DNA of 49,384 nt from Anaerolineales bacterium (GTDB lineage Bacteria > Chloroflexota > Anaerolineae > E26-bin7): NCBI GenBank assembly GCA_004377365.1, contig SOHZ01000288.1, forward strand, positions 1-49,384, written 5' to 3'. The position numbers and the translations under genes are program-made. Position 1 is the stretch's first letter. Each line of letters opens with the position of its first letter. The notes below the pieces were generated by a model. The model saw only the letters and a list, made by a program, of their open reading frames with translations, was not told the DNA's origin and ran no database searches. Positions 23,071-39,735 of this stretch are shown here, piece after piece.

Positions 23071-23213
23071 CTCTCCCACCACTTGGAATCCTTCCGCAAA
23101 ACGAAAGGCTGGCGGCGTGCACTCCCTACAAGCCGACCTCGTTTGGTCGCTCGACGCCTTCCGCGAGACCAGACGGTGCTGTCAGCCAGAGCCGTGTATT
23201 TGCAGACCCCGTT

Positions 23214-23570
23214 CTACTCAAGTTCACGCGGTTCTAGTAGAAGCCCGATCCCATCAAGAATCTCGTGCACTCGCCTACTCGAGAGTGTCCCGATCTTTTC
23301 GCCCAATTGGCTCTTATCCACCGTGAAAATCTGAGATACGTTGACGACACTCTGTTTCGGCAGATTGGCCTCTTTTGGTTCAAGGAGGACATTTCCTGGA
23401 GCAGCGGCACGTTTGAGGTTGGAGGTTAGCGCGCAAACGACGACCGTGTTGATACGACTGCGGTTGAACACGTTGTTCTGGACGACCACGTGGGGATGTC
23501 GGTATCCGGGTTCCGAGCCCGAGGGTTCGTCCAGGTCAATCCAGAAGATGTCGCCCTGGTTGATCACCAT
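23214..23570 (-). CDS. mazF: MazF/PemK toxin (mRNA interferase)
   Basis: QGDIFWIDL.EPSGSEPGYRHPHVVVQNN.FN...VVCALTSN...SVVNVSQIFTVDK. Confidence 0.9.
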   Translation of the reverse strand: MVINQGDIFWIDLDEPSGSEPGYRHPHVVVQNNVFNRSRINTVVVCALTSNLKRAAAPGNVLLEPKEANLPKQSVVNVSQIFTVDKSQLGEKIGTLSSRRVHEILDGIGLLLEPRELE

Positions 23571-23818
23571 TCGCCTTCTACAATCTGCCGATGCTGGCGA
23601 CGCATCCTACGCCGCAGAACTTGCTCCGATGGATCGGGAGCATCGTCGTAAGCGGCGTTGATCCGTTCCAAAAGTTGCTGGCTTTGATGGCGCTGGAAAA
23701 ATTCTTCCAGGGCCAGCACGAATAGGCGGCTGCGTGAGATTTTCATTTCGCTAGCCAGGGTTTCGACTTGCTCAAAGAGGTCTTCTCGAAGAGAGATCGC
23801 TGTTTTGATATGGGCCAT
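23564..23818 (-). CDS. Ribbon-helix-helix antitoxin (ChpI/MazE-like)
   Basis: KTAISLREDLF...ISRSRLFVLALEEF...ERINAAY; overlaps toxin start. Confidence 0.85.
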   Translation of the reverse strand: MAHIKTAISLREDLFEQVETLASEMKISRSRLFVLALEEFFQRHQSQQLLERINAAYDDAPDPSEQVLRRRMRRQHRQIVEGEW

Positions 23819-23820
23819 TT

Positions 23821-23872
23821 GTTATACCATCCTTTCTACCGACAGTATAACCAATTTGCACGCCAATGTCAA
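23821..23872 (-). promoter_or_regulatory. TA promoter with inverted-repeat operator
   Basis: Minus strand TTGACA-17-TATACT (23872-23844); inverted repeat GTTATAC (23821-27) / GTATAAC (23845-51) overlapping the -10. Confidence 0.75.
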
Positions 23873-23888
23873 GGCCGCAACATAAGAG

Positions 23889-24393
23889 TCACTCACTGGC
23901 TACAACCACTACCCCGACGAGTCCAGCACCAGAGTGGACGGACAGACCCGGCGTGAGCTCGGCCGTGAGCACGTCGTCAGGGCATGGCAGGCTGGCGCGC
24001 ACCTGCTCCTCTTGAACGCGGAATTTCGGAACTCGCGGAACACGCGGAAACCATCCGCGCTCTCCGTCCCTCCGCGCTTCCGCGACCCTCATGGCCAGGT
24101 ATTTGAGCGTGGACAGGGCAGCGTAAAGGTACGTGCGCTCGCCCACTGCAACGGCGTGGGCGACGATCTCGTCCCTGGACGCGCCTGTCTGGGCGGCCTC
24201 TGCCGCGGCCAGCACCATGAACCCCTGGCTCATGGAGAGGCTGCGCGAGTCCACCACCGTAAGGTCTCCTGCCCAAAGTGGACGGCGATGGGCACCTGCC
24301 GCCTGTGCCGCAACAGTGGCGGATGCCGTAGCGAGCGGCAACCTCGGCCGGCAGGCTGGAATCGGTGTCGGTGATAATGGCAATGGATGACAT
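23889..24393 (-). pseudogene. DegV-family fatty-acid-binding protein, decayed
   Basis: N-term IAIITDTDSSLP..YGIR/QVPIAVHFG, middle VVDSRSLSMSQG..LSTLKYLAM, C-term ELTPGLSVHSGAGLVG; frameshifts, two large deletions, repeat insertions. Confidence 0.85.
24012..24094. repeat. CGCGGAA-rich 9-mer-based inverted repeat element, copy 1
   Basis: TTGAACGCGGAATTTCGGAACTCGCGGAACACGCGGAAACCATCCGCGC...; related copies near 24405, 25288 and 26385. Confidence 0.8.
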
Positions 24394-24404
24394 AGCTCCT
24401 CCCT

Positions 24405-24460
24405 TTGAACGCGGAATTTCGGAGGGCGCGGAATATGCGGAAATCCCTTCCGCGCCCTTC
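24405..24460. repeat. Same repeat family, copy 2, directly upstream of the DegV RBS
   Basis: TTGAACGCGGAATTTCGGAGGGCGCGGAATATGCGGAAATCCCTTCCGCGCCC. Confidence 0.75.
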
Positions 24461-24557
24461 GCTCTACTCAGTTGCAATCGTTCAACTCGGCCTCTCACAG
24501 CAGCGACTTTCGCCAGTCCCTGTGAGGTCATTGGCTTGCTTTGGAATGGTTGTGGCT

Positions 24558-24779
24558 TCAGGCTTCAGCACGGGCAAGCTGTGCCAGGCGCTCTGGGCCA
24601 ATGGTTGCACGTAGAAAGCGTGAAGCGTTCAGGATCTCCACGCCGAGCAGTTGCCCTTCCTCGTCTAGCTCTACATTGACCCCTTCGGCCACCTCCACAA
24701 ATCTCTCTTCCTCTCCGTCCCGCACCAGAAAATAGAGTATATCGCTTTGTGGGTCGTAGTGAACTGCTGGTCTATTCAT
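24558..24779 (-). CDS. DUF2283 protein (putative antitoxin)
   Basis: VHYDPQSDILYF...VNVELDEEGQLLGVEILNAS. Confidence 0.85.
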   Translation of the reverse strand: MNRPAVHYDPQSDILYFLVRDGEEERFVEVAEGVNVELDEEGQLLGVEILNASRFLRATIGPERLAQLARAEA

Positions 24780-25053
24780 GGGTCCACCTCCCTGCGAGCA
24801 CTCGCTCGCTGATCTGACGGCTTTCGATAGGATGGATAGTCACAATCTCCACACGGTCAGGAAACTCGTCGTAGGCGATCATCATCTTTCTGCGGCGACG
24901 ATGGTAGATCACAGACATTACAGCGACATGACGAAAAGTGGCGTGATTGTAATAGCGTTCCTGTGCCTCGCGGTAAATGCGTTCGGGCATCCTCTCAGGA
25001 ATCCGTCTCGCTCGCAAACGAAGTTTGAGATGGTCAGTGTAGACGACGCGCAC
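24772..25053 (-). CDS. DUF4258-like (RelE/BrnT-fold) putative toxin
   Basis: VVYTDHLKLRLRARRI...MIAYDE...EIVTIHP; upstream of DUF2283; GTG 25053 with GAGGAG RBS. Confidence 0.65.
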   Translation of the reverse strand: MRVVYTDHLKLRLRARRIPERMPERIYREAQERYYNHATFRHVAVMSVIYHRRRRKMMIAYDEFPDRVEIVTIHPIESRQISERVLAGRWTHE

Positions 25054-25273
25054 ACCTCTCCTCCAGCATGTCTGCATGTCTGGCGTGTGCCAGCGAAGCC
25101 TGCATCAGGTCATGCAAGTCTTCCTCGCTCCAGGCATCGCTCACGTCCACGGCTGTGCGTTGGCCGTAGCGCTCTTGCAAAAAGGTGATAAAGTCATACA
25201 CCTCGGCCACCTTTTCGGGGGGCAGGGTAAACAATGCCTGCAGGATTTCTCTGGCTTGTGTGCGCGTCATCAT
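25034..25273 (-). CDS. DUF2281-like small antitoxin-type protein
   Basis: LPPEKVAEVYDFITFL motif; AAGGAGG RBS. Confidence 0.65.
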   Translation of the reverse strand: MMTRTQAREILQALFTLPPEKVAEVYDFITFLQERYGQRTAVDVSDAWSEEDLHDLMQASLAHARHADMLEERCARRLH

Positions 25274-25287
25274 CGGCGTTCCTCCTT

Positions 25288-25350
25288 TTGAACGCGGAAG
25301 CTCGGAACTCGCGGAATACGCGGAAACCATCCGCGCCCTCGCCCCTCCAT
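25288..25350. repeat. Same repeat family, copy 3, upstream of RBS
   Basis: TTGAACGCGGAAGCTCGGAACTCGCGGAATACGCGGAAACCATCCGCGCCC. Confidence 0.8.
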
Positions 25351-25375
25351 GCTTTGGCATCTTTTGCTTTCACCA

Positions 25376-26362
25376 TCAGAGAATCCGCATATCAGCGAGG
25401 TCTCCACAAGCCTCAGGGATTGGCCCGTGCAAAATTACGTCGGTTGCATCAACCCATCTTCCGAGACGCTCAGCAATCGGCTCAGGGTGGGGAGCGAAAA
25501 CGTGCACCAATGGCCGATTTACTCCTGATTTCTTGAGCAGGCGGCCAATCTCAACATCATAGTCTGGAATGCTATAGCCAACAATCAACCATGTTGTTGC
25601 CGCTTTGAGTTTTTCCAATGCTAACTCCCAGATAGGCTTCAGCCATTCGGGAGTCTCTTTCCCTTGAATCGGTGGGATCATAGCGGCATCACCTCGGAAA
25701 GCTGGACGGCAGTCACCATATTTCACCAGAGAGGTTTTCTCAACCGCCCAAGAAATTGAACCGTGAAGTTTCAGCAATGCAACCGAGCCCGAGATTTCGG
25801 GATTTCGTCGGTATTCTGAACGGGGGTGGCCAGTAACACCGGCAAGCAATTCCTTACCAGAGCCGTAATGAAATCCAGGTCTGAGCCGCCGAGGGGTGGG
25901 TCTAGGCCTGAGACCTCGTTCAACCCAAATATCCCAGTTCGTCGTTACGACAGTAAGAGGGTATTCTAGCCCAAGCCTTTGGAAGAGTGCATCCCACCAC
26001 AGTTCGTGTGGGAAGGGTATCTGGGCTTCAAAGATGTTATCACTCGAACGGCTAGATTTGGAGTCATGCTTGTACCACCGTGCGAAATCTTGAGCCAACC
26101 GCATTGCCAGAAATTGCACTATGTCTTGCCAAAGCTTCAAACCGCTGAACTCATTACGATGACGGTACACCTCCGTGACAAATGCCTCGGGGCCGCCATC
26201 ATGTTCTCGGCTCCAGCGGTCCCAGGCAACAAGCACACGCTCAATCAAGCGATTTCGCCATTGAGCCCCGCCGAAGGGCTCGATGTCAAACAGTTCTGCC
26301 GCGAGAGGCGATCCTGCGGTCTTCGAAAAACCAGCACCAAGAATCAAGGCCATGCTTGACAT
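25376..26362 (-). CDS. Stand-alone SIR2-like (SIR2_2) protein, putative NADase
   Basis: ILGAGFS, VVTTNWD, LLKLHGSISW, IVGYSIPDYD motifs; ATG 26362 with GGAGAGGA RBS. Confidence 0.85.
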   Translation of the reverse strand: MSSMALILGAGFSKTAGSPLAAELFDIEPFGGAQWRNRLIERVLVAWDRWSREHDGGPEAFVTEVYRHRNEFSGLKLWQDIVQFLAMRLAQDFARWYKHDSKSSRSSDNIFEAQIPFPHELWWDALFQRLGLEYPLTVVTTNWDIWVERGLRPRPTPRRLRPGFHYGSGKELLAGVTGHPRSEYRRNPEISGSVALLKLHGSISWAVEKTSLVKYGDCRPAFRGDAAMIPPIQGKETPEWLKPIWELALEKLKAATTWLIVGYSIPDYDVEIGRLLKKSGVNRPLVHVFAPHPEPIAERLGRWVDATDVILHGPIPEACGDLADMRIL

Positions 26363-26384
26363 ACGAGATTCCTCTCCCAATCTA

Positions 26385-26462
26385 CCCGCGCCTTCCGCCT
26401 CTCCGTGCTTCCGCGACCCTCATGGACGGAATCTCGGAACTCGCGGAACTCGCGGAAACCCC
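26385..26462. repeat. Same repeat family, copy 4, arms in swapped order, upstream of SIR2
   Basis: GCTTCCGCGACCCTCATGG (26407-25, identical to 24076-94) followed by CGGAATCTCGGAACTCGCGGAACTCGCGGAAACC. Confidence 0.75.
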
Positions 26463-26583
26463 TCCCCCCCGGCCTCATGGACGTCCAGCAAGTGATCATA
26501 ATCAGGATTGGCCTTGGCCAACTCCCGCTCCCGATGAGCGATGCGCAAAGCGGCTTCCTTATCGGACAACGATTACCTCGCCC

Positions 26584-29500
26584 CTACTCCAAAACCGCCC
26601 CCTGTGCCGCCAGCCATTGGCCAAGGGTCACGTTTTCAACAACGTATTCCTCCGCTTCCTCGTTGAACACTTTCTTTGTATGTACAACTGCATCTAGTCC
26701 CTTGGCTCCGGCCAGTTGTAGATTCTGACATCTCAAACGCTGGGAAATTCTAGCTATTGGATAGAATTTTTCCATCTCTTTTGTTGAGAAAATCACGATA
26801 GTTCCATCGTCAAGTCCTGCAGCGATGAGGTCCCCAGTGTTGTCGTAGCTCACGCTTTTGATAACTCCTATCTTACTGGTGGTCTCATAGCACTTGTACA
26901 TCATCGGATGATCCGTAGCAAAAAAGTAGATTCTATTACTAAGACCAACTGCAGCTTCCTCAACTCTTGGGTGGAGATCGAAGTTCCTGGGAAAACTAAG
27001 TCTCAACGTCAAAGCGTAGCGCCTGGACTGGATTTGTACCTCCAGGCAAATCGATGAGCGATGTGAGCGCCTGAACCTGGCATCGTTGTTTCTTTGTGAG
27101 GCAAAGTGAGCGCAAATCGAGGACTTGCTAGTTCCGACTTGATAGTATTTCTCATCGAATTCTTCTGAACCAAGCACTCTGGTGTTACGTGTCTGCAGCG
27201 ACAGCACATGAATTGATCGGGTACTAATGTCCCAAATTAGAAGGTCATCGCCGCTAAAGGCAATATCGCCCGGTCGCCAAGTTTGTCGAAAACTAGCATA
27301 TCGAGACTGCTTTTCAAGGTGCCATATGCAGACATTTCCATCATCATCGCAGCTAGCAATCAAATCTCCTTTCGCAGACCAGCAAATAGCCTTCAGTGGA
27401 GCAGAATGACCACTGAATGTAATAACCTCCTTCACATTCTTAAGCTCGCTCACGTCCCATATGTGCAAGTAGGTGTCCATGCCGCCACTAGCTAGCATCG
27501 TCCCCTCCGGGCTGAAGGCGATAGAGTTCACCGCACTCATCTCGCTGAACTGGGCATTAGTCAGGTCGGCGTCCCGCAGATTGGCGTTTACTAGCGTGCC
27601 GCCTCGGAATTGGACGGATCGCAGATTGGCAGACCGCAAATTGCAGTCAGTCAGATCGGGATTCTGTAATTGGACGAATTGCAGATTGGCAGACCGCAAA
27701 TTGCAGCCGGTTAGGTCAGGGTTCTGCAAGTTAGCATAGCTCAGGTTAACTTCGCGCAGATTATGCCCCTTGAGAGTCAGAGGGTCGCACCGGATAAGCA
27801 GTGTGGCGACGTTGCCCCCCGTAGTCCCTACGTCATCCATGGTTTTGACTCGCGTCCTGGCAATGACGGCCAATAGTCGCTCTTTGACAGCTTCCTCGTT
27901 CGGACCAAGCATGTTCTGCATCAATTCTAGTATGGCTTTGGTAAACGGTTCCTTGCCCACGGTTTCCGCCAGATTCTTCATTTCTTCAGCTACAAACTCT
28001 CGGAGGTGTGAGATGGGTTTAATGGCGCCCGTTTCATCTACCTTACGCTGGAAATAGGAGGACCACGCGTAGTCCTGGGGTGACGCACTCTCATCCAAAT
28101 GTGACTGCTGTTGGGCCATTACAGTAAGGTCTGGGGCCAACACACCTAGTTCGGCGGCAAATTTGTAGGCCACGAAGAACTCCAGGAGTGAACGATGGGC
28201 CGGGGTATAGTCGCCGTCGGCGTTGCGGATCAGCATGGTTTGGCCCATCATGTCGTAGTGCCAATGGTCCAGGTCCTTTTGTTCCTGTACGACGGGACCG
28301 AAGAGACGGCGCAGGCGATCAGGAAATTGACGGTAGTTGAGGCTCATCTGGTCGGTAGAGAGCATCTCCCATGACAACTCGCACAAGAAGTGGAGCTTGT
28401 CGGCCAGCGAGGTAAAGGTGCGCTCCGCTTTGATGTCCCGCTCCATCTTGCGCCGTACGGCGTAGAGGTAGATGCGCGATAGGTCCACTGGCTTGCCGGC
28501 CTCGATGTCGGGCAGCGCCTCCAGGATGAACTCGGTCATCACCGGGCGGCGGGCCAAGTCGAGAAGCTGGGGATTGCTCATCACCTGCTTCACTATGGCA
28601 GGCTCGGCCCGCAACGACAGCACCTGGCGGATTTGGGCGTCATCGAATTTCTCCAGTTCCAGCACCTCGAACTGGGGCGGTTCGCCGGTCAGCTTGGAAG
28701 TAGAGGCTTGCAATTCCGCACTGAGCAGGGCACGGCCCTCTCTGGCCTCTGGAAAGTGCTCGGTGCGACAGGTGAGAATCGCCTTGGCCCCCGAAACCAC
28801 CACCCGGGCCAGTTCCCAAAAGTTGTTAATCATCTTTTGGCGATCTACTTTAGCTGCCATCTCGTCAAAGCCATCGAAGATGAGCAGCAGCTTGCCCATG
28901 CGGTTGAGTTGCTCAAAGGCGGAATAGCCGGGCAGGGGGATCTCGTGCTTGCGGAAGAAGAATTCGGAAAAGAGGGACTCAACGCTGACCGCCTTGGCAT
29001 AGTCGCGCAGGGGGATGACCAGGGGCAGGCGGGGTCGTTCGACACCCCGTTCTTTGGCCTCGCGGTAGCGTTGCAAGGCGGTCCAGGCATAGTGCAAGGC
29101 GAACCAGGTCTTGCCGGTGCCGAACTCGCCCAGGATGGAGATGTGCTCCTTGGCCGGGTCATCCAGCCAGCGATCAATGTAGCCGTCTATCCAGCCGTTG
29201 CGGTCGTTGTAACGACTTTCCCCAACCTTTTTCTTGGTGACCGGATCGAACTCCTCTTTGGTACAAGCCAAGGGGACGTACATTCGGTCAATGCCATGGC
29301 GCTTGACCTCGGCCTCCAACCAATCGAGGTAGCCGCTAAAGTCGGCGTGCTCGTCCAGCAGTTCGTCAAAGGTGTAGCAAAAGAGGTCGCGATTCTCCTT
29401 CTTTTCGAGTTCGTCACAGGCGGCTTGACTTTTACGACGGGCAGCCACCAGCCAGCCCTCATCGGTCTTTTGGTCGTTCACGGCTTGGCGCAAGGCCGCG

Positions 29501-30228
29501 ACATCGCTCACTTCGGCCTCACCTTCGATGCCGCGCACCAGGATGCGGTCGTATCCCCGCCGCGCTGGGATGTTGATGATCCACTCGAAATAGTCCTCGG
29601 CTCGGATGGCGTGGCTTTCAAAACGGTAGCCGAGGGTTTCAAACCAGGCCTTCATCTGCTGGGCCAGGTAGTCGGAGGGGGTGCCCTGAGGCAGACGTTC
29701 GCGGCTGGCAGCCTGCAGGCGGTCCACCTCGGCCTGGAGGCGAGCGATCTTGTCCTGGGAAACACGTGCTGCCTGAATCTCGGCTGTCATCTCTCGGTGC
29801 CGCCACACCAACCAGGCCATGATGTCATCGGCGACTTGCTGGCCCAATTCTACGGCGCTGTCGAAGTAGTCGTAGGTCACACCTTTTTGCAGGTCGTAGA
29901 TCTCGTTCTCCAGGAAATCTTCCAATGCTTTCTCTCGTTGAATATCCTTGTCGCGGATGTAGACAAAGCATTCCTTACCCAGGGCGCGAGCGTGGTGGTA
30001 CTCCTGCACCGTTACCTCGCCGTACTTTTGCCAGAACAGTCCCAGATAGATGTCGGCGGCCTCCACCTCGCGCAATGAGGTCTCTACCACATCTTCCGGC
30101 CTAGCGCCGGCGTGAGCTTCATACACCCAGGCCTCAATCCCTTTGTCATCGAGGGCCTTGGCGACAACCTCGCGTACGTCGCGCAGTTCAGCCATCTTGG
30201 AACTGATAAACACCTTGAGCTTTTCCAT
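26584..30228 (-). CDS. NLR-like STAND NTPase: DUF4062 - degenerate REase-like - NACHT - pentapeptide - WD40
   Basis: KVFISS..EL..R (DUF4062); Walker A GEFGTGKT; Walker B LLIFDGFDEM; ILTCR; xNLxx pentapeptides; WD40 repeats VNSIAFSPEG.MLASGG.D..LHIWD and GHSAP..W. Confidence 0.9.
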   Translation of the reverse strand: MEKLKVFISSKMAELRDVREVVAKALDDKGIEAWVYEAHAGARPEDVVETSLREVEAADIYLGLFWQKYGEVTVQEYHHARALGKECFVYIRDKDIQREKALEDFLENEIYDLQKGVTYDYFDSAVELGQQVADDIMAWLVWRHREMTAEIQAARVSQDKIARLQAEVDRLQAASRERLPQGTPSDYLAQQMKAWFETLGYRFESHAIRAEDYFEWIINIPARRGYDRILVRGIEGEAEVSDVAALRQAVNDQKTDEGWLVAARRKSQAACDELEKKENRDLFCYTFDELLDEHADFSGYLDWLEAEVKRHGIDRMYVPLACTKEEFDPVTKKKVGESRYNDRNGWIDGYIDRWLDDPAKEHISILGEFGTGKTWFALHYAWTALQRYREAKERGVERPRLPLVIPLRDYAKAVSVESLFSEFFFRKHEIPLPGYSAFEQLNRMGKLLLIFDGFDEMAAKVDRQKMINNFWELARVVVSGAKAILTCRTEHFPEAREGRALLSAELQASTSKLTGEPPQFEVLELEKFDDAQIRQVLSLRAEPAIVKQVMSNPQLLDLARRPVMTEFILEALPDIEAGKPVDLSRIYLYAVRRKMERDIKAERTFTSLADKLHFLCELSWEMLSTDQMSLNYRQFPDRLRRLFGPVVQEQKDLDHWHYDMMGQTMLIRNADGDYTPAHRSLLEFFVAYKFAAELGVLAPDLTVMAQQQSHLDESASPQDYAWSSYFQRKVDETGAIKPISHLREFVAEEMKNLAETVGKEPFTKAILELMQNMLGPNEEAVKERLLAVIARTRVKTMDDVGTTGGNVATLLIRCDPLTLKGHNLREVNLSYANLQNPDLTGCNLRSANLQFVQLQNPDLTDCNLRSANLRSVQFRGGTLVNANLRDADLTNAQFSEMSAVNSIAFSPEGTMLASGGMDTYLHIWDVSELKNVKEVITFSGHSAPLKAICWSAKGDLIASCDDDGNVCIWHLEKQSRYASFRQTWRPGDIAFSGDDLLIWDISTRSIHVLSLQTRNTRVLGSEEFDEKYYQVGTSKSSICAHFASQRNNDARFRRSHRSSICLEVQIQSRRYALTLRLSFPRNFDLHPRVEEAAVGLSNRIYFFATDHPMMYKCYETTSKIGVIKSVSYDNTGDLIAAGLDDGTIVIFSTKEMEKFYPIARISQRLRCQNLQLAGAKGLDAVVHTKKVFNEEAEEYVVENVTLGQWLAAQGAVLE
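27608..27727. repeat. 60-bp tandem duplication in pentapeptide region
   Basis: LQNPDLTGCNLRSANLQFVQ / LQNPDLTDCNLRSANLRSVQ. Confidence 0.85.
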
Positions 30229-30247
30229 CTCGCCCCTCCTGAGCTGG

Positions 30248-30484
30248 TCAATTTACCGACACACCTAGCTTCATGTATTCACCAGCCTCATATTCCATCC
30301 GAGCTTCTCGAATCTCAGCCATGATGCGAAGATTGGCTAACATCAACTCATCCTCGTACTCAGCTAGCTTCTCGTCCAGCCACTCACGCAATCGCAGCAT
30401 ATCCTGGGGCTGCAATTGCTCCATGAGCCTGGTTAGCGCGGAAAACGGCACCTTGAGCTGAATGTCCCTTTCATCTACCCCCAT
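30248..30484 (-). CDS. Small acidic orphan antitoxin-like protein
   Basis: C-terminal EIREARMEYEAGEY resembles RelE-partner antitoxins; GGGAG RBS; no toxin follows. Confidence 0.5.
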   Translation of the reverse strand: MGVDERDIQLKVPFSALTRLMEQLQPQDMLRLREWLDEKLAEYEDELMLANLRIMAEIREARMEYEAGEYMKLGVSVN

Positions 30485-30505
30485 ACTCCCATCCCCTTTC
30501 ACATC

Positions 30506-30763
30506 TTAACACGAGGCTGAAACCTCTACGCTTCTATCTACCGCTACCTGGAAAACATCCCGCCACCTACCTCCTACCGCTTCGTACATCCTCCCCAATC
30601 GCTCGGGGATTTCGCTGAAATCCGACACCCAGAGCACGCGCGTGCCCAAACGTTTCAGAGGGGCTTCGGCCAGATGATTGATCTCGGGCGCTGTCCAATC
30701 CGGCAGGATGGCGAAATGGAGGGATGCGGTCAAGTCAGTGGTGTGGGCATGAAAGCTGACCAT
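30506..30763 (-). pseudogene. Probable C-terminal fragment of a SIR2-family gene
   Basis: HFAILP...LKRLGTRVLWVSDFSEIPERL resembles the last strands and helix of SIR2_2 domains; no N-terminal part. Confidence 0.45.
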
Positions 30764-30777
30764 CCAACGACAGCACC

Positions 30778-31017
30778 CTACGCCGTCAGAGATAGCGGCA
30801 GGCGGAACACGGGCGCCTGTCCCACTGGCGTTTCGGTTTCCGGATCCAGGGCAAACAGGGTGTCCAGCACGCGCAAATCCAGCACCGTATACCCACACAC
30901 CGGGCAAACCAGCGCTGGCAGATCTTCAACGACAATGGGATTTCCATCACGCACAAATGTATGCACGATCCGGCGTTGCTCCATTTCGCCAGGGCATCCC
31001 TGAACAATGCATTTCAT
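30778..31017 (-). CDS. YgiT-type (MqsA-like) zinc-finger protein
   Basis: MKCxxxxC.G.M...IVVEDLPALVCPVCG. Confidence 0.85.
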   Translation of the reverse strand: MKCIVQGCPGEMEQRRIVHTFVRDGNPIVVEDLPALVCPVCGYTVLDLRVLDTLFALDPETETPVGQAPVFRLPLSLTA

Positions 31018-31340
31018 CGCTCGTAACCTCCTCGTAAGGTTGGTGTGATCCATTTGGGTGGACGGGGTTCATACACGGTGATAATCGTGACCGGAAAGCC
31101 CGAGTAGGAGGCAACAATGTGTAAATCGCGTCCAGCGGCGGTCCGTCCATGGATCAGACATGATGGCCCAAGCCACCACTGGGGATAATCCTCAAGCAGT
31201 TGCGCGTTGAGCATGGCCTCCTCTATCTCTGGCCGGGTGATGTGTTCAGCGAGTGCCTCCTCAGCCGCGTATAGTGAAATCTTGAGTTGGTGTTCTCGTA
31301 CCGTTCGTTCGAACAGGTCCAGAATGGACGCCGTGTTCAA
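31014..31340 (-). CDS. DUF4258 protein (putative toxin)
   Basis: LEDYP...PSCLIHGRT.AGR.LHIV...IITVYEP...W; typical partner of YgiT zinc finger. Confidence 0.85.
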   Translation of the reverse strand: MNTASILDLFERTVREHQLKISLYAAEEALAEHITRPEIEEAMLNAQLLEDYPQWWLGPSCLIHGRTAAGRDLHIVASYSGFPVTIITVYEPRPPKWITPTLRGGYER

Positions 31341-31531
31341 TCCAGCTCTTCGGGCAGAGGTTCACCGTCAGCTAGCCTGTCTTCGACGTGCAACCCGATG
31401 GCGCCCCTGATATTCTCCAGGGCCTCTTCGTAGGTATCTCCCTGGGTATAGCACCCTTTCAACTGGGGACAATAGGCGAAATAGCCATCGGCGTCCTTCT
31501 CAATGAAAACAGGCAAAGAGAGTTTTTCCAT
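31337..31531 (-). CDS. HicB-like antitoxin (short, no HicA adjacent)
   Basis: IEKDADGYFAYCPQLKGCYTQGDTYEEALENIRGAI. Confidence 0.85.
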   Translation of the reverse strand: MEKLSLPVFIEKDADGYFAYCPQLKGCYTQGDTYEEALENIRGAIGLHVEDRLADGEPLPEELD

Positions 31532-31563
31532 GATCTCACTATCGGACTTTTTCAAACGCAAAG

Positions 31564-31680
31564 GTTTCGAATCACGAATGGGCGAATTTCACGCCTGTAC
31601 CGCAACAGTGGTGAATGTGGCTTCATCATTTCGGATAGAGTTTGTGCCGTTCGTCCCTTCGTGACATTCGTGTTTCAAAG
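31564..31680. repeat. CACGAA/TTCGTG inverted-arm repeat element at island border
   Basis: GAATCACGAATGGGCGAATTTCACG ... TTCGTCCCTTCGTGACATTCGTGTTTC; contains a 20-mer shared with 24300-24319. Confidence 0.6.
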
Positions 31681-31688
31681 CTGCCAGA

Positions 31689-32636
31689 TCACCGTAACCC
31701 TGATCTGAGCACCTGCCAATGTGCTCTCACCCGCTCTGCCCGCAATGGCCGCTTGTGCCCCACCAGCCACTTCAGAGATTCCAGGAACAGTTGGTAGGCG
31801 TAGGTAGCCAGTAGGAAGAGGCACAGGACCTCGGCCTGCCAACGTCCATGATGCTTGCGGAAGTAGAGGACCTTGCTGCGCTGAAACTGGATGTGCTGCA
31901 AGGGTTTCACCTGCTCGCTGGACTTGGCCTCGTGGTGGATGATTTGGGCCGTGGGCAGATAGACCACCCGCCAGCCACGTTCTTTGAAACGGCGGCACCA
32001 ATCCATCTCCTCGGAGTACATGAAGAACTCTTCGTCCAACAGACCGACCTGCTCGATGGCCTGGCGGCGGGCCAGGAGGCAGGCCCCCACTACCCAGTCC
32101 ACCTCTTGCACCTCGTCGTCCCCCCGCTCACGGATGTAGTAGCGGCGTAGGACCCGGTTATCGGGGAACCACTGCTGGAGGACGGTGCTCTCCAGAAAGG
32201 CCGTGGCCATGGTCGGGAAGCGACGCCGTGAGGGCTGTACGCTGCCATCGGGATTCAGCAACTGTGGCCCCAGAGCCCCCCCCTGGGGATGGGCGTCCAT
32301 GTACTGCACCATCGTGCTCAGGGCATCGCCCACCACTTCGGTGTCTGGGTTCAGCAGGAGCACGTAGCGCCCCTGGCTCTGGGCGATGGCCTGATTGTTG
32401 CCTTTGGTGAAGCCCAGGTTCTTTTCGTTGGCGATCAGGTGCACCTGGGGAAAGCCCTCACCCACCATGGCCACGCTGCCGTCACTGGAGGCATTGTCCA
32501 CAACAATGACCTCCAATTCAAGGCTGGCTCCCGTGGTCCGATAGATCGAACTTAGACAGCGCCGCAACAACTCTCGCACGTTCCAGCTAACGATGACGAT
32601 AGAGAGATCAATGGAGAGTGGTAAGCGTTCAGCCAT
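31689..32636 (-). CDS. GT2 glycosyltransferase (WbbL/rhamnosyltransferase-like)
   Basis: SIVIVSWN, VVDNASSD, NLGF..GNN, LLLNPDT, VVGAC, LDEEFFMYSEEMDWC. Confidence 0.9.
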   Translation of the reverse strand: MAERLPLSIDLSIVIVSWNVRELLRRCLSSIYRTTGASLELEVIVVDNASSDGSVAMVGEGFPQVHLIANEKNLGFTKGNNQAIAQSQGRYVLLLNPDTEVVGDALSTMVQYMDAHPQGGALGPQLLNPDGSVQPSRRRFPTMATAFLESTVLQQWFPDNRVLRRYYIRERGDDEVQEVDWVVGACLLARRQAIEQVGLLDEEFFMYSEEMDWCRRFKERGWRVVYLPTAQIIHHEAKSSEQVKPLQHIQFQRSKVLYFRKHHGRWQAEVLCLFLLATYAYQLFLESLKWLVGHKRPLRAERVRAHWQVLRSGLR

Positions 32637-32698
32637 CAGCGGTCAGCTTTCAGTTTCTGGATAAACGATGTGAGCATTCGCTTCACCTCGGTCACTTC
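32636..32698 (-). pseudogene. C-terminal remnant of a four-helix-bundle (23S rRNA IVP-like) gene between heptamer repeats
   Basis: EVTEVKRMLTSFIQKLKADR*; TGA overlaps the next ATG; flanked by (GCTGAnn)n heptamers. Confidence 0.65.
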
Positions 32699-32809
32699 AC
32701 AAGCAATCAGCCGTCAGCTTTCGGCGATCGCCTAACCGCTGTGAGTGAAAAGACGGCGGCTCGAGGGCCGCCGCGTCGTTGAGATATGGCAATGGCTGGG
32801 CCTCCACCC

Positions 32810-33772
32810 TCACCAGCGCCGCTCCACCACATAGTCGGCCAAATCCAGCATGGCCTGGCGATACTCGTTGTGGGGCAATACTTGCAAGGACTCCCGGCTG
32901 CCCTGAGCGAAGCTTCTGGCTTCATCCAGGGCTGATTCCACTGCGCCCGATTCCTTGACGGCGGCTACAACCGCTCTCACCTCCTCTTCCCCTGGGTCGT
33001 TGAGCGCTTTTATCAGCGCGTCGTCTGTCGGGTGCATCTCGTGGAAATAGAGCGCCGGCAGAGTGACGATACCCTGGCGCAGGTCGCTGCCCACAGGCTT
33101 GCCCAATTCACGCTCGTCGCCCACAAAGTCCAGCACGTCGTCAACGATCTGGAAGGCCATGCCCAGGGTGCGGCCGTATTCACGCAGGGCCTGTACCTCT
33201 GGCTCTGGTGCCCCGCTCAGCACCGCCCCGGCCTCCGTCGAAGCGGCAAAGAGGGAAGCGGTCTTGCTGTAGATGCGTTGATAGTACTCCTCTCTGGCAG
33301 GAAGATTTCCCTGGCTGTTAAAGATCTGCTTTAGCTCCCCGCTGCAAATGGCCATCAGGCCTTGGGCAAAGATAGACATCACCCGCACGTTCTCTACCTC
33401 CGCGGCCAGGCCCGCTGCCAGGGCAAAGAGGAAATCACCGGCCAGGACGGTCGCCCCCCTGTTCCAGGTAGCGTTGAGGGTAGGGTTGCCCCGCCGGACG
33501 AGGGAGTTATCTATCATATCGTCGTGGACGAGGGTAGCTGTGTGCAACATCTCCACCGAAGCGGCCAGAGAGATGGCTTTCTCTGCATCGGCGGGGTGGA
33601 ACTTGCATGACAGTAGAACCAAAGCTGGCCGCAGGCGCTTTCCCCCGCTTTTCAAAAGATCATCCAGCACTGCTGCCAGGTGTTCGTATTCGACCTGGCT
33701 GGCCTCGCGCATCTTTTGCTCTACGCGCTGCAACTCCTCGTGAACCAGGTCCAGAATGGAGATGGTCTTCAA
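32810..33772 (-). CDS. Trans-polyprenyl diphosphate synthase
   Basis: GGKRLRP, HTATLVHDDMID..RRG, KTASLF, FQIVDDVLD, GKPVGSDL; TTG 33772 chosen because the longer ORF overlaps tatD. Confidence 0.92.
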   Translation of the reverse strand: MKTISILDLVHEELQRVEQKMREASQVEYEHLAAVLDDLLKSGGKRLRPALVLLSCKFHPADAEKAISLAASVEMLHTATLVHDDMIDNSLVRRGNPTLNATWNRGATVLAGDFLFALAAGLAAEVENVRVMSIFAQGLMAICSGELKQIFNSQGNLPAREEYYQRIYSKTASLFAASTEAGAVLSGAPEPEVQALREYGRTLGMAFQIVDDVLDFVGDERELGKPVGSDLRQGIVTLPALYFHEMHPTDDALIKALNDPGEEEVRAVVAAVKESGAVESALDEARSFAQGSRESLQVLPHNEYRQAMLDLADYVVERRW

Positions 33773-33789
33773 ATCCCTTCCTTTCGATG

Positions 33790-34599
33790 TCAGGTAGCTC
33801 CGGGCGATTCCAGGCCAAAGAGCGCCCGGGCATTCGTAGTGGTGATACGTGCCACTTGTTCCAGCGGTATCCCCCTGATCCGTGCGATGGCCTCCGCTAC
33901 CAGTCTGACGTAAGCTGGCTCGTTGCGCTTCCCTCGATGGGGATGAGGGGTGAGATAAGGACAATCGGTTTCGATCAGTAATCGTTCCAGCGGCAAAGCG
34001 CGTACCAATTCCGGCAGGCGACGGGCGTTGGTGAAAGTGACCGGGCCAGGGATGGAGATGTAGAAGCCCATCTCGATGACCTCCCGGGCCATGGCCAGAT
34101 CACCTGAGAAGCAGTGCATCACGCCAACTGGCCGATGGCTGGTGGCAGATGGCTGGTAGCCTTCCCCGACCCACTGGCGGAGCATGTTCATGACGTCATC
34201 ATGGGCTTCGCGGTCGTGGACGATGATGGGCTTGCCCAGTTTCCTGGCCAGAGCCAGTTGTTGCTGGAAAGCCCGGCGCTGGACCGGCCGGGGTGACTGG
34301 TCACGATAGTAATCCAGCCCTATCTCACCGATGGCCACCACTTTTTGGTGCTGAGCCAGAGCTCGTAGCTTTTCCAGAACGCCCTCGTTCAGGGTCTTAG
34401 CCTCATGGGGGTGGACTCCTACCGCAGCGTAAACCTGGGGGTAGGTCTCGGCCAGGGCCACCCCCGCCTGGCTGGCTTCCAACCCGGCCCCGGCGTTGAC
34501 GATGATCTCCACCCCGGCTTCCTGAGCGCGAGTGATCACCTCCTGGCGGTCTGCATCGAATTGGGGGAAGTCAAGGTGGGCGTGGGTATCAATCAGCAA
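33790..34599 (-). CDS. tatD: TatD family DNase
   Basis: IDTHAHL, GVHPH, IGEIGLDY, HDREA, MHCFSG, ETDCPYLTP. Confidence 0.95.
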   Translation of the reverse strand: MLIDTHAHLDFPQFDADRQEVITRAQEAGVEIIVNAGAGLEASQAGVALAETYPQVYAAVGVHPHEAKTLNEGVLEKLRALAQHQKVVAIGEIGLDYYRDQSPRPVQRRAFQQQLALARKLGKPIIVHDREAHDDVMNMLRQWVGEGYQPSATSHRPVGVMHCFSGDLAMAREVIEMGFYISIPGPVTFTNARRLPELVRALPLERLLIETDCPYLTPHPHRGKRNEPAYVRLVAEAIARIRGIPLEQVARITTTNARALFGLESPGAT

Positions 34600-34612
34600 A
34601 AGCTGCTCCTCC

Positions 34613-34638
34613 GGTTTCGATACGCTTCGTACTCAACC
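34613..34638. repeat. Small intergenic REP-like hairpin
   Basis: GGTTTCGATACGCTTCGTACTCAACC. Confidence 0.45.
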
Positions 34639-34663
34639 CAAGAATCAATTATGGCGCGCAACA

Positions 34664-36061
34664 TTATCCGCTTTCCCATTCCTCCCCAATTTCAGGGTAC
34701 TTGGAGAACTTTTTGCGGAAGATGGCCATGATCTCGTCAACGCGCTCTTGAGTCTTGGCTTCGAAGCGCAAGACCAGCACAGGGAGATTAGAGGAAGCAC
34801 GGACCAGTCCCCACCCATCGCCAAAATTGACCCTGGCTCCGTTAATATCGTTGACATCATATCCGTCTGCTTTAAACTCTTGGGTCAACTTGTCAACCAC
34901 ATCATATTTGACTTCATCTGCACAATCGGCCTGCAAAGCTGGAGTAGATACGTAGTACGGTGTGTTAGCAATCACTTCAGACATGGTGCCTGTTTGTTGT
35001 GAAAGGTATTCTGTCAGTTTCAGAGCGGCAAAGACGGAATCATCAAACCCATAGTAGTCAGGCTGGCTTACGAATATGTGGCCGCTCATCTCCCCTCCCA
35101 GCACCGCTTGCTCGTCCCGCACTTTTTGCTTGATGTAGGAGTGTCCTGTTTTCCACATAATGGGGATGCCACCGTGGGCCTCAATGTCTTCTGGCAGAGC
35201 CTGAGAACACTTTACGTCAAATACAATCTTCGATCCAGGATGCTTTTGCAGAGCTTGCCGCGAGAGCAGGATGAGGAAACGGTCGGGCCAGACAACCTGA
35301 CCCTGCTCATCAGTAATTCCCAGTCGGTCACCATCGCCGTCAATCGCCAGGCCGATGTCGGCTTCTGTTTCGACGACCTTCTGCCCTGTGTCTTCCATCA
35401 TTTCCACTAATGAGGGATTGGGGAAGTAAACGGGAAAGTCCCAATCCAGATTGCAGTACAGTTCGACCACCTCGCACCCTGCTTTACGCAAGATAGCTGG
35501 GACAAACGCGCCAGCGGTTCCATTTCCTGTGTTGACGACAACTTTCATAGGGCGTGCTATCTCGACGCGCTTTAACAGGTCCGCTGTATAGTGTTCTGTG
35601 AAATCATCGGCCTGAACCGTGCCCTTTCCAGACCCAAAATCCTCGCTGACGGTTAGCTCGTACAGTTCTTCCATTTCCTCTGGCCCAAACGTATAAGAAT
35701 ATCCAAGGGCCAGTTTCAACCCACTCCATCCACTGGGATTGTGGGAAGCCGTGAGCATGAGCCCGCCCTTGGTCTCGTAATGATACTGAGCCGAATACAT
35801 CAGCGGGGTCAAAATCATACCCAGGCTGATGGCGTTGACGCCCGTAGATACGAGCCCCTCAATCGCTGCTTGTGTGAGTCTCTCCGAAGATTTCCTGTAA
35901 TCGTGGCCAACTATTGCTGTCTTGATCTCCCGTTGCCGAAGCATCGTCCCGTATGCTTTAGCAAGGATTCTGATGGTATCCTCGTTCAACTCCTTGTCGT
36001 TCACCCTCCCGCGAAGGTCATATTCGCGGAACATAGTACGCTCCAGGTTTGCCATTGACAA
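34664..36061 (-). CDS. Phosphomannomutase/phosphoglucomutase (AlgC-like)
   Basis: FREYDLRG, TASHNP, DGDGDR, GEMSGH, VRASSN..LRFE. Confidence 0.93.
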   Translation of the reverse strand: MSMANLERTMFREYDLRGRVNDKELNEDTIRILAKAYGTMLRQREIKTAIVGHDYRKSSERLTQAAIEGLVSTGVNAISLGMILTPLMYSAQYHYETKGGLMLTASHNPSGWSGLKLALGYSYTFGPEEMEELYELTVSEDFGSGKGTVQADDFTEHYTADLLKRVEIARPMKVVVNTGNGTAGAFVPAILRKAGCEVVELYCNLDWDFPVYFPNPSLVEMMEDTGQKVVETEADIGLAIDGDGDRLGITDEQGQVVWPDRFLILLSRQALQKHPGSKIVFDVKCSQALPEDIEAHGGIPIMWKTGHSYIKQKVRDEQAVLGGEMSGHIFVSQPDYYGFDDSVFAALKLTEYLSQQTGTMSEVIANTPYYVSTPALQADCADEVKYDVVDKLTQEFKADGYDVNDINGARVNFGDGWGLVRASSNLPVLVLRFEAKTQERVDEIMAIFRKKFSKYPEIGEEWESG

Positions 36062-36076
36062 ACTCCTTTTAAAAGA

Positions 36077-36637
36077 TCAGATTCCCTTGCGTTGCTTTAG
36101 GATGATCTCCACCGCCTGAGCTAGGTCCTCCACAATGAAATCGGGCCGTGTCTTCCAGTTCTGACGCTCCTGTAGCGCTTTGCCGCCCCGGCCTGTTTTG
36201 ACCAGGAAGGTCGTGCAGCCCACGGCCGAACCAGCTTCAATGTCCGATATGGCATCGCCCACCATATAGCATCGAGTCAGGTCGAGGTCCCAGTCTGCCG
36301 CAGCCTTGAGCAACATTCCCGGCTTGGGCTTGCGACACTGACATCCGTCCTCAACCCGATGGGGACAGTGATATACCGCCGATATCTTCCTGCCAGCGAC
36401 GCTGGTTTGTGTAACCAGGCGGCGGTTGATCTCCTGCACCATCGCATCCGATACCAGCCCTTTGCCTATACAGGCTTGATTGCAAATCACGATGACAGGC
36501 CTGTTCTCTCTTAGCAATCGTTGGATGGCCTCGCGGGAGCCGGAGAGAAACTCGAACTCTTGCCAGTGCCTGACATAGTCGCCATCTATATTGCGGTTGA
36601 TTACACCGTCGCGATCCAAAAACACCGCGGTCTTCAT
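36077..36637 (-). CDS. gmhB: D-glycero-D-manno-heptose 1,7-bisphosphate phosphatase
   Basis: FLDRDGVIN, NQACIG, CPH...C.CRKPKPGM, MVGD..SD. Confidence 0.85.
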   Translation of the reverse strand: MKTAVFLDRDGVINRNIDGDYVRHWQEFEFLSGSREAIQRLLRENRPVIVICNQACIGKGLVSDAMVQEINRRLVTQTSVAGRKISAVYHCPHRVEDGCQCRKPKPGMLLKAAADWDLDLTRCYMVGDAISDIEAGSAVGCTTFLVKTGRGGKALQERQNWKTRPDFIVEDLAQAVEIILKQRKGI

Positions 36638-36651
36638 ATTTTTGCTCGAAC

Positions 36652-36888
36652 CTATCCTGTCACCTGCTGGATGACATCGGCGATGGCCTGTGTTTCTCTC
36701 TCGATGACTTCCTGATCGTCTCCCTTGATCATCACTCGCGCTGGGTCCTGGGTGGCCGAATAGCGCAGCACGATGCGGTTAGCTTCGCCCAGCGCGACCC
36801 AGGCTTTGGCTACTTGAGCCTGGACTTTAGGGATTTCTTCGCCGCGGATGCTGTCGGTGCCGAAAAGCTTTTTCACCTCGACTGCCAT
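36652..36888 (-). pseudogene. glmM: Internally deleted phosphoglucosamine mutase remnant
   Basis: 78 aa: N-terminal KLFGTDSIRG fused in frame to C-terminal LGEANRIVLRYSATQDPARVMIKG. Confidence 0.75.
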
Positions 36889-36889
36889 G

Positions 36890-37297
36890 TCATTGCGCTC
36901 CCAGGTATTGTTCGACGAGTTCCAGAACCTCGGTCGCCAAAGCGATAGCTCCTTCGGCGTCCCGGTCATCATATACTTCGGCTGGCACGCCGCCAGGCAG
37001 CCCATTAGGGTATCGAGTGGGGATGTAGAAACGATCCAACTTGCCCACCTGCGAGGTCAGAGAGGCAAAAACTTCCTGGTGCTCTCCACAGCGTTCGCAC
37101 AACTCTATGACCGAGTGGCCAGTTACGAATCGCTCTCCCTGTCGAAAAAGAAAGGCTTTAAGGGCTTTCTCGGCACTCTGCTGGGCACTGAAGCAGGCGG
37201 TGGCATAGAATTGGCCCTCAGCGTTGTACTTGGCCACTTCAAGGTCGTATTGGGCTTGTTTAAGCCAACGCGCGGCTTCAGCTACTGGATCCTTCAT
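36890..37297 (-). CDS. HEPN domain protein
   Basis: RWLKQA.YDL, ACFSAQQSAEKALKA, GHSVIEL, YIPTRYP. Confidence 0.9.
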   Translation of the reverse strand: MKDPVAEAARWLKQAQYDLEVAKYNAEGQFYATACFSAQQSAEKALKAFLFRQGERFVTGHSVIELCERCGEHQEVFASLTSQVGKLDRFYIPTRYPNGLPGGVPAEVYDDRDAEGAIALATEVLELVEQYLGAQ

Positions 37298-37601
37298 AGA
37301 CGACGACGCCTTCCTTCAATACTATTTCAACGAAAGAGTTGCCTCGCTCTTGCATCTCCGTGAACTCTTGGGGAGTGTAGACCAACACGTCCAAGGCGAA
37401 ACGGGGTTGAACCAGTTCGTAGATAGTTTTCAACCGATCCAAGAAGCGCTCGTTTGTCTCTTTTATGATTACAATATCCAAATCGCTGTACTGGTCAGCA
37501 TTCCCTCTGGCTTGAGATCCAAAAAGAATGATTCGCTTAGGCTCATATTCCCTCAGAGCTGAGACGACTTGAGCGATTCGATCCTGCTGGGAAATCAACA
37601 T
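37278..37601 (-). CDS. Minimal nucleotidyltransferase (MNT)
   Basis: IILFGSQARG...SDLDIVII...DVLVYTPQEF. Confidence 0.9.
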   Translation of the reverse strand: MLISQQDRIAQVVSALREYEPKRIILFGSQARGNADQYSDLDIVIIKETNERFLDRLKTIYELVQPRFALDVLVYTPQEFTEMQERGNSFVEIVLKEGVVVYEGSSS

Positions 37602-37602
37602 A

Positions 37603-38583: not shown

Positions 38584-38602
38584 TACCTTTATCTCTTATC
38601 CT

Positions 38603-39562: not shown

Positions 39563-39630
39563 GTTGCCCCCTTGTCACTCGTTATTCATTGCTCATTACT
39601 TGCTGGCTAGGTGTTCAATCTTGGTGTCCT

Positions 39631-39659
39631 ATTATACCCCACTTTGTTTATCATCGCAA
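39631..39659 (-). promoter_or_regulatory. Promoter of the leftward glycosylation operon
   Basis: Minus strand TTGCGA-17-TATAAT. Confidence 0.7.
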
Positions 39660-39686
39660 GGATACCCTTGCCGTAACTTCACCCAC

Positions 39687-39715
39687 TTGCCAGCAGGCTA
39701 TCCCTGTGGTATCAT
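39687..39715 (+). promoter_or_regulatory. Divergent promoter of the DUF2723 gene
   Basis: TTGCCA-17-TATCAT with extended -10 TG. Confidence 0.65.
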
Positions 39716-39735
39716 TGGTGCAGGCACAAAATACA

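Follow-up and report, generated by a model that had tools for sequence, protein, structure and literature searches.

Do a gene for an NLR-like protein and the gene for a stand-alone SIR2-like protein that comes next on the same strand make up a two-gene antiphage system, or are the two only neighbors? The question is raised by contig SOHZ01000288.1 of an Anaerolineales bacterium (assembly GCA_004377365.1), whose 49,384 nucleotides were analyzed as a whole and are called the window here. Both genes lie on its minus strand, that of the NLR-like protein (the NLR) first and that of the SIR2-like protein (the SIR2) second, with a gap of 221 bp when the latter is read from the ATG at 26362. A first-pass annotation had described them as co-oriented and about 220 bp apart, which is correct, and had proposed one system in which the NLR signals to the SIR2 through its DUF4062 domain or binds it directly. 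It had named conserved adjacency of homologs as one of the tests, and homologs did not occur as neighbors in any of the contexts examined. We conclude that the two are probably independent, NAD+-depleting one-gene defense modules which came to lie side by side by chance in a hotspot of accessory genes. Their independence is argued for by the lack of conserved adjacency (0 of 160 SIR2-family loci and 0 of 22 NLR/DUF4062 loci), by repeats that flank the SIR2 gene alone, by a same-genus genome with other cargo in their place, by the plausibility of a chance encounter, and by an effector domain that the NLR has of its own.

A pattern scan confirmed relatives of the SIR2 gene at 184 places in species genomes and 265 places in metagenomes, and the best 80 of each were used. 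Flanks of up to 10 kb, where the contig was long enough, were included. Except for two short partial matches they are 27-49% identical to the SIR2 of the window, and their hosts belong to many bacterial phyla and to some archaea. Using the NLR as a tblastn query, we found no match at E ≤ 1e-3 in the 80 genome loci and a single match at E ≤ 1e-2 in the 80 metagenome loci, which covers DUF4062 only (locus L105, E = 1.2e-6). The neighbor in question, encoded 136 bp downstream of the SIR2 relative, is a 481-amino-acid (aa) protein with DUF4062 and HATPase_c_4 domains and not an NLR. Pfam detected no NACHT domain among the 61 same-strand neighbors within 200 bp at the 77 of 80 genome loci in which the SIR2 open reading frame (ORF) was called, and none among 79 flanking genes at 45 of the 80 metagenome loci (the top-ranked ones and those on longer contigs, with 35 left out). 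One neighbor is a KAP/AAA_16 ATPase, and neither set has an NLR-type protein; by tblastn and Pfam together, the count of NACHT neighbors is 0 of 160 loci. A HerA-type ATPase was seen neither beside the SIR2 gene of the window nor among the 140 neighbors of its relatives. Housekeeping genes are found next to the family (MoaA, MoaC, GlmS, GMP synthase, fumarase, and FGGY kinase) as are mobile and defense genes (IS1595 transposase, serine and tyrosine recombinases, GmrSD, Eco57I, a BrxC/D-like ATPase, Mrr_N, RAMA, two cases each of UvrD, DUF4365, and a second SIR2_2, and one of TIR_2). The picture, as drawn from these gene neighborhoods, is of a solitary and apparently transferable gene without a fixed partner. 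At two metagenome loci (L093, 1479-2702; L103, 1472-2647) a second, longer SIR2_2 protein of 391-407 aa comes after the SIR2 relative in the same orientation, an arrangement that may be a recurring SIR2-SIR2 pair.

The same comparison was made from the side of the NLR, with 7 of 8 plasmid records that carry 55-74% identical relatives (6 kb of flank on either side) and 15 genome loci (to the contig limits). The genome loci comprise matches to the inactive restriction endonuclease (iREase)-NACHT part in genomes that also hold the SIR2 family (G441, with four, G452, G467, and G470), one locus each from G015 and the same-genus genome G401, and six NLR/DUF4062 paralogues from the genome of the window itself. 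A hidden Markov model of the SIR2 family had no match at E ≤ 10 in these 22 loci. Pfam placed no SIR2 domain among the 44 genes that flank the 15 genome loci, which are PIN, VapB, nucleotidyltransferase, transposase, trypsin-like, and metabolic genes. Co-occurrence was surveyed in 50 genomes that carry the SIR2 family (30 further ones were left out); 4 of the 50 have an NLR relative at E ≤ 1e-20, in no case within the stretch of up to 10 kb analyzed to either side of the SIR2 gene. Two other handles were given up. The NLR protein across the phylum reached E ≤ 1e-20 in only 2 of 400 other genomes, too few for a test of context. The iREase family PF22722, searched in 401 genomes, was too unspecific to be used, with 192 matched, mostly in ORFs of 150-600 aa, and with 5 of 14 controls matched as well; that tally includes the unpublished genomes G145, G227, G344, and G272, on which no claim rests.

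The genome of the window has 22 matches to NACHT, spread over 21 contigs, and 11 to SIR2_2, spread over 10 contigs (10 of the 11 matches are above the cut-off), so that a chance adjacency is plausible. No contig is in both lists. By rough arithmetic, 22 NLR genes and a dozen or so SIR2 genes placed uniformly over 5.87 Mb would leave about 0.1 of the latter within 1.5 kb of one of the former. Genes of these kinds cluster in islands, and a chance neighbor is therefore more likely than this figure says. On three contigs of the genome (C228, C401, and C672), SIR2_2 domains lie in open frames of 964-1125 aa, which may be DSR-like proteins or SIR2-NTPase fusions.

The locus itself differs within the genus. 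Genome G401 (88% complete) has kept both flanks, on the left through the MazF pair and an intact DegV gene of 305 aa and on the right starting with the small gene that lies upstream of the NLR and reaching into the glycosyltransferases, and lacks positions 24461-30269 of the window. In their place it has one palindrome copy and a gene that joins SIR2_2 (E = 5.3e-28) to a ParB-type helix-turn-helix (HTH) domain. The product has no significant similarity to the SIR2 of the window (BLASTP E = 0.057) and resembles the N terminus of Dsr2 (E = 3.2e-22); this SIR2_2-ParB-HTH fusion, in which a small SIR2 bears a tail of DNA-binding type, may be a defense candidate by itself. In the three same-genus genomes available (88, 92, and 69% complete), the SIR2 family of the window was not found (0 of 3), and in two of these incomplete genomes there are relatives of the NLR, only 33-35% identical. 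The comparison of sequences shows the segment to be a hotspot whose immune-type cargo differs from species to species, with both genes of the window as recent arrivals. Variability of the hotspot alone does not show that the two arrived separately; a separate event is indicated because the repeat copies flank the SIR2 gene alone.

These repeats are four copies, all in one orientation, of an imperfect palindrome built of TCCGCG/CGCGGA 6-nucleotide units. Copies 4 and 3 flank the SIR2 gene, copies 3 and 2 flank a trio of genes of toxin-antitoxin (TA) type, and copies 1 to 3 run into the ribosome-binding site of the following gene. An nhmmer profile of the copies has 19 matches in the genome, 4 in the window and 15 on 11 other contigs (C9, C670, C420, C384, C328, C206, C589, C426, C509, C607, and C245), in tandem on C9 and C670 and several times at contig ends. 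Judged by its sequence and spread, the palindrome is a dispersed, REP/BIME-like family and not private to the locus. Like REP/BIME palindromes it is short and imperfect, made of repeated 6-nucleotide units, intergenic, dispersed (on 12 contigs or more), tandem in places, and frequent at contig ends; unlike them, it has one copy inside a decayed gene, and four copies in the same orientation flank gene cassettes. The first-pass annotation had added the caveat that a repeat separates the two genes and that they could be independent arrivals. The repeat is real (copy 4), and the caveat has turned out to be the better reading: a dispersed repeat and a further stretch (26485-26583) lying between the genes speak against a single system. 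That stretch, which runs from the stop codon of the NLR to copy 4, reads as a short open frame; the first-pass annotation had taken it for a gene fragment.

Some further observations concern the repeats. The genome has 12 Y1_Tnp (RAYT-type) matches. The DegV gene of the window (23889-24440, minus strand) is decayed, with a change of frame after about 25 codons and about 220 nucleotides replaced by repeat copy 1. One public sequencing run contains the window in full and may be its source. In four others, X2 to X5 (contigs at least 85% alike), no contig extends over most of 26528-27997. Repeat-to-repeat joints were found from 24393 to 25279 (X3 and X5) and from 24393 to 26427 (X5), and a further joint in X3 leads from repeat copy 1 to just past the 84-aa gene (24091 to 30551); the matching sides of all of these are only 21-59 letters long and fall within repeats. 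They were set aside, since repeat copies that match one another, or DNA of other organisms, would look the same, and nothing is drawn from them.

The NLR has the parts of a complete one-gene system. Pfam bore out the order DUF4062-restriction endonuclease-NACHT-pentapeptide-WD40 given in the first-pass annotation, and the absence of catalytic residues that it had noted in the endonuclease-like segment agrees with the Pfam name of that domain, inactive restriction endonuclease. The Walker motifs, likewise described as intact, are GEFGTGKT at residues 367-374 and LLIFDGFDE at residues 448-456 by motif scan, and are kept in 119 (Walker A) and all (Walker B) of the 120 relatives listed. At the N terminus the protein carries F7, W66-Q67, and E76-Y77. 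Among 84 N termini, those of the NLR itself and of the 83 of 120 listed relatives with DUF4062, E76 is found in 83, F7 in 80, and A80 in 84. Recent preprints (2026), in the portions on which we draw, describe DUF4062 as a TIR-like NADase with ADP-ribose and nicotinamide as products and as the effector of single-gene defenses, one of which, a DUF4062-Avs2 protein, loses defense on an E108Q exchange. One of them puts the catalytic glutamate in an "E-Y" region and names as further motifs an aromatic residue in the first strand and a Q/W/E motif. The NLR, with PF13271 over its cut-off and with the E-Y glutamate, F7, and W66-Q67, is a predicted member of this group, E76 being equated with the published catalytic glutamate through the motif descriptions in the preprint text rather than through alignment to the tested proteins. 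A sequence search of the domain against PDB chains gave best matches of only E = 0.26 or worse, and no residue mapping onto a solved TIR-like structure. Because DUF4062 is reported in these texts as an NADase effector and E76 is kept, the NLR would need no separate effector; the products reported there, which are not a cyclic signal, also tell against signaling to the SIR2 by a DUF4062 product.

Of 7999 candidates scored, at least 1614 are relatives of residues 1-800 of the NLR at E ≤ 0.001. Over these 800 residues the best 120 show 60-87% identity, and the names attached to them include Bacillus cereus, Paenibacillus, Metabacillus, and many cyanobacteria. Its members in Bacillus, Paenibacillus, and cyanobacteria are complete with no partner gene, a further point against a two-gene system. 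No SIR2 accession occurs in the domain strings listed for the 120 relatives, some of which are partial. The C-terminal domains vary among the relatives listed (WD40, HEAT/ARM, pentapeptide only, TGS, and FGE-type), the cyanobacterial ones lack DUF4062, and a copy on one of the plasmids carries the annotation "caspase family protein". Against the closest relative, identity falls from 91% (residues 1-160) and 86% (161-800) to 54% (801-895) and to 34% over part of the WD40 region. The best reading of these comparisons is a conserved chassis with a fast-diverging sensor, apparently widely transferred. The G+C content is 0.51-0.52 in the sensor part (26584-27830) and 0.58-0.59 in the chassis (27830-30228). 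This lower value, together with an identity of 34-54% in the sensor versus 86-91% in the chassis, suggests that the sensor part was exchanged by recombination.

The SIR2 most likely starts at the ATG at 26362 (residue M7, for a protein of 328 aa), because its relatives begin there, the 94% identical relative is 328 aa long, the ESM Atlas entry runs from residue 7, and GGAGAGGA is located a few bases 5' of this ATG; residue numbers here count from the TTG start. Its sequence scores are low. Pfam SIR2_2 (PF13289) gives 18.7 bits (E = 0.0019), under the cut-off of 24.5, and the six-frame SIR2_2 scan of the genome did not list the protein for that reason, while many of its relatives do carry PF13289 in precomputed annotation. 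In a check with PADLOC, as proposed in the first-pass annotation, SIR2 models match at E of about 5e-6, with a score of only about 23 bits, and no ThsA model is among the matches. NCBIfam has nothing near cut-off for the SIR2 or the NLR. The motifs said to be intact are so. In 56 relatives T146, N148, D150, K204, H206, and S208 are invariant and the GAGF motif is nearly so; GAGFS, TTNxD, and KxHGS are invariant or nearly invariant. The AlphaFold model (mean pLDDT of 92) has SIR2 chains as its top PDB matches, with a probability of 1.00. The best is 8uae_F, the SIR2 of SIR2-HerA (E = 1.2e-9, TM-score of about 0.5), followed by KomC, DSR2, and ThsA, and the classical deacetylase 1s7g_A is weaker (E = 3.2e-6). 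We accept the identity as a stand-alone SIR2 despite the weak sequence score because the family motifs and the fold agree; compared with known defense sirtuins, the protein lies under the PF13289 cut-off and has the sirtuin fold and the Asn and His of the NAD+ site.

Pfam finds no other domain than the subthreshold SIR2_2 in the 334 aa, and no SLOG or Macro domain. A single fold of 328 aa without a signal-binding domain is not what a SIR2 that is switched on by the NLR would be expected to look like. It belongs to a rare family of stand-alone proteins, about 300-360 aa in size: 5.8 billion proteins yielded 74 clusters, with listed lengths of 230-358 aa, in a search limited to proteins of 183-585 aa, which did not cover fused forms. 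No match was found in plasmid and phage collections. With its NAD+ site intact and a fold of the defense type, the SIR2 is most likely an NAD+-consuming enzyme that acts alone, as predicted from sequence and model.

On this basis the two modules would work as follows. In the NLR, the C-terminal pentapeptide and WD40 repeats would bind a phage-derived trigger, the NACHT NTPase would then oligomerize and bring the N-terminal DUF4062 (NIR) domains together, and the assembled domains would hydrolyze NAD+ and stop the infected cell. The SIR2 gene would have been inserted separately, between two local copies of the REP-like palindrome.

Both proteins can be placed beside known systems. As in the bNACHT proteins described by Kibby et al. 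(bioRxiv 10.1101/2022.07.19.500537), a NACHT domain with Walker A and B is set between an N-terminal effector and C-terminal repeats, the plan is that of a single gene, there are many paralogues per genome, and endonuclease, NNH, and pentapeptide modules are in use; unlike them, the NLR has DUF4062 as its effector, which is not among the NAD+-targeting effectors in the portions of that paper's text on which we draw. PsAvs2 (bioRxiv 10.64898/2026.09.04.749371), as presented in the preprint portions considered here, shares the N-terminal DUF4062 with the conserved glutamate, the central STAND NTPase, and C-terminal repeats, and differs in having an Avs2-type STAND module and TPR in place of inactive endonuclease, NACHT, pentapeptide, and WD40. 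Human NWD1, NWD2, and TEP1 are reported to have the order DUF4062-NACHT-WD40 (bioRxiv 10.64898/2026.05.01.722283); as far as that account goes, the NLR shares with NWD1 and TEP1 this order, the conserved glutamate, and C-terminal repeats, whereas its family has no TROVE domain. The family of the NLR was not found as a tested defense gene in the literature on DUF4062 and bNACHT-SIR2, in which published homologue tables may include close relatives. The nearest counterpart of the SIR2 is SIR2-HerA (Nezha; PDB 8uae, 8wld, and 8j4u), its best structural match, similar in size and with an NAD+ site of SIR2_2 type. The identity is only 14% and the TM-score moderate, and the SIR2 gene is flanked by the NLR and a TA-type cassette instead of HerA.

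An island at about 23100-31650, which breaks up a long series of cell-envelope glycosyltransferase genes, contains the pair (Table 1). The first-pass annotation had called it TA-rich, which is correct in view of its genes: a PemK/MazF toxin with a small gene upstream, the decayed DegV, a trio of DUF2283, 101-aa, and DUF2281 genes, the 84-aa gene, DUF4258, and a HicB-like gene. On both sides (1-23082 and 31689-41757) lies a very long cluster of membrane glycosyltransferase type (PMT_2, DUF2079, DUF2142, GT2, GT4, and TMEM260-like) with genes of GDP-mannose dehydratase type.

Table 1. Coordinates of the two genes, their domains, and nearby features (window positions unless stated otherwise)
Feature	Position	Strand	Length or residues	Basis or remark
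NLR-like gene	26584..30228	-	1214 aa	ORF and translation, Pfam, 1614 relatives at E ≤ 0.001
DUF4062/NIR TIR-like NADase domain (predicted)	29779..30228	-	residues 1-150	Pfam PF13271 at residues 5-73, 41.7 bits (cut-off 24.7)
NA-iREase1 (NACHT-associated inactive restriction-endonuclease fold)	29353..29667	-	residues 188-292	Pfam PF22722, E = 2.7e-41; same coordinates in the 401-genome search
NACHT NTPase core	28621..29142	-	residues 363-536	Pfam PF05729, 28.5 bits (cut-off 26.7); also in genome scan and motif scan
Pentapeptide repeats and WD40 blades, presumed sensor	26749..27777	-	from residue ~818	Pfam, 63.5 and 73.5 bits
SIR2-like gene, stand-alone	25376..26362	-	328 aa from ATG 26362	334 aa (25376-26380) from TTG 26380
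Palindrome copy 1	24001..24094	-		Inside the decayed DegV gene
Palindrome copy 2	24391..24477	-		Upstream of the DegV pseudogene; G401 has a copy at the same position
Palindrome copy 3	25276..25358	-		Directly 3' of SIR2; ends in Shine-Dalgarno and ATG of the next gene
Palindrome copy 4	26379..26484	-		Between NLR stop and SIR2 start; fold z of -2.66
Trio of small genes flanked by repeat copies 2 and 3	24558..25270	-		DUF2283, 101-aa ORF, DUF2281-type antitoxin-like
84-aa gene upstream of NLR	30248..30502	-	84 aa	Kept in same-genus genome G401; far edge of the variable segment
SIR2_2-ParB-HTH gene of G401	L218 5052-6059 (G401:C118)		335 aa	

Several points weigh against independence. Many of the loci compared are short contigs, and the genome of the window is itself in 676 contigs, so that some adjacencies could have been cut. 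The contexts compared belong to relatives at 27-49% (SIR2) and 25-74% (NLR) identity. The closest relatives (87% for the NLR and 94% for the SIR2) come solely from metagenome contigs that are short, and stand outside this comparison, and a young, lineage-specific pairing would escape it. Co-transcription of the two genes is possible in view of their shared orientation, the 221-bp gap, and the want of a convincing terminator. A scan of 24300-30700 with consensus patterns that may not fit this phylum gave 5 promoter-like sites versus 2.8 expected and 3 terminator-like sites versus 5.9 expected; under the same proviso, it placed neither kind of site between the NLR and the SIR2. Two relatives of the SIR2, at L105 with its DUF4062 gene and at L166 with an adjoining TIR_2 gene, are faint hints that small SIR2 proteins and TIR-like NADases can travel together. 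That either gene serves in phage defense is, finally, what we infer from its likeness to known systems.

Among the alternatives, one that we regard as unlikely takes only the NLR as immune and the SIR2-like protein as an NAD+-dependent deacylase or ADP-ribosyltransferase in a regulatory or housekeeping role, or as drifting cargo. Such a protein would fit with the ordinary metabolic genes that make up about half of the Pfam-matched neighbors, with scores that are all below or near the thresholds of Pfam, NCBIfam, and PADLOC, with the lack of any visible partner or sensor domain, and with the absence of relatives from the plasmid and phage collections. The remaining neighbors, however, point the other way (restriction genes, GmrSD, BrxC/D-like, Mrr_N, integrase, and recombinase), and so does the fold, which is nearer to that of defense sirtuins than to that of the deacetylase. 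The family is patchily distributed over bacterial phyla and archaea and was not found in any of the three genomes of the genus, as would be seen with an accessory gene that is transferred, and at the same hotspot G401 has a Dsr2-like SIR2. Independent defense by both proteins accounts better for these facts.

A more daring idea, which we hold to be quite improbable, gives the repeats an active part. The REP-like palindromes would be joints for the swapping of one-gene defense and TA cassettes, in an integron-like array without a recognizable integrase in an uncultured filamentous bacterium, and the 328-aa SIR2 would be one self-sufficient, NAD+-depleting cassette with sensing built into its sirtuin fold. 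When set beside integron cassette arrays (CALIN), the repeats are imperfect palindromes of one orientation between cassettes, and the family is dispersed and elsewhere in tandem. No RYYYAAC or GTTRRRY core sites of attC type were seen by eye in the repeats; an integrase was not searched for.

The single system of the first-pass annotation has precedents in which a TIR-like or STAND sensor is combined with a SIR2 NADase. Thoeris consists of a TIR protein (ThsB) and a SIR2 effector (ThsA, SIR2-SLOG), and in Avs5 a SIR2 is fused to a STAND NTPase. In contrast to ThsA, which reads its signal through SLOG (or Macro), the SIR2 of the window has neither domain, and its adjacency to the NLR is not conserved; unlike in Avs5, it has an ORF to itself, set apart by a stop codon and 221 bp, and the NLR already has another domain in its effector position. 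The genes being side by side in one direction, we still consider it very unlikely, given 160 and 22 loci without the pair, that the NLR on sensing phage activates the SIR2 by binding or by a DUF4062 product and that NAD+ is then lost by two routes or mainly through the SIR2.

Taking the two genes as independent modules removes a tempting two-gene system and leaves two cheaper, concrete targets. Where a genome has NLR and SIR2 genes by the dozen, the mere fact that two of them are adjacent is weak evidence for a system. The NLR family, whose first 800 residues are 60-87% identical in Bacillus, Paenibacillus, cyanobacteria, and this organism, could be a tractable bacterial model for NADase switching in NWD1/TEP1-like proteins. 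If the SIR2 family defends, it raises the question of how a bare sirtuin fold stays off.

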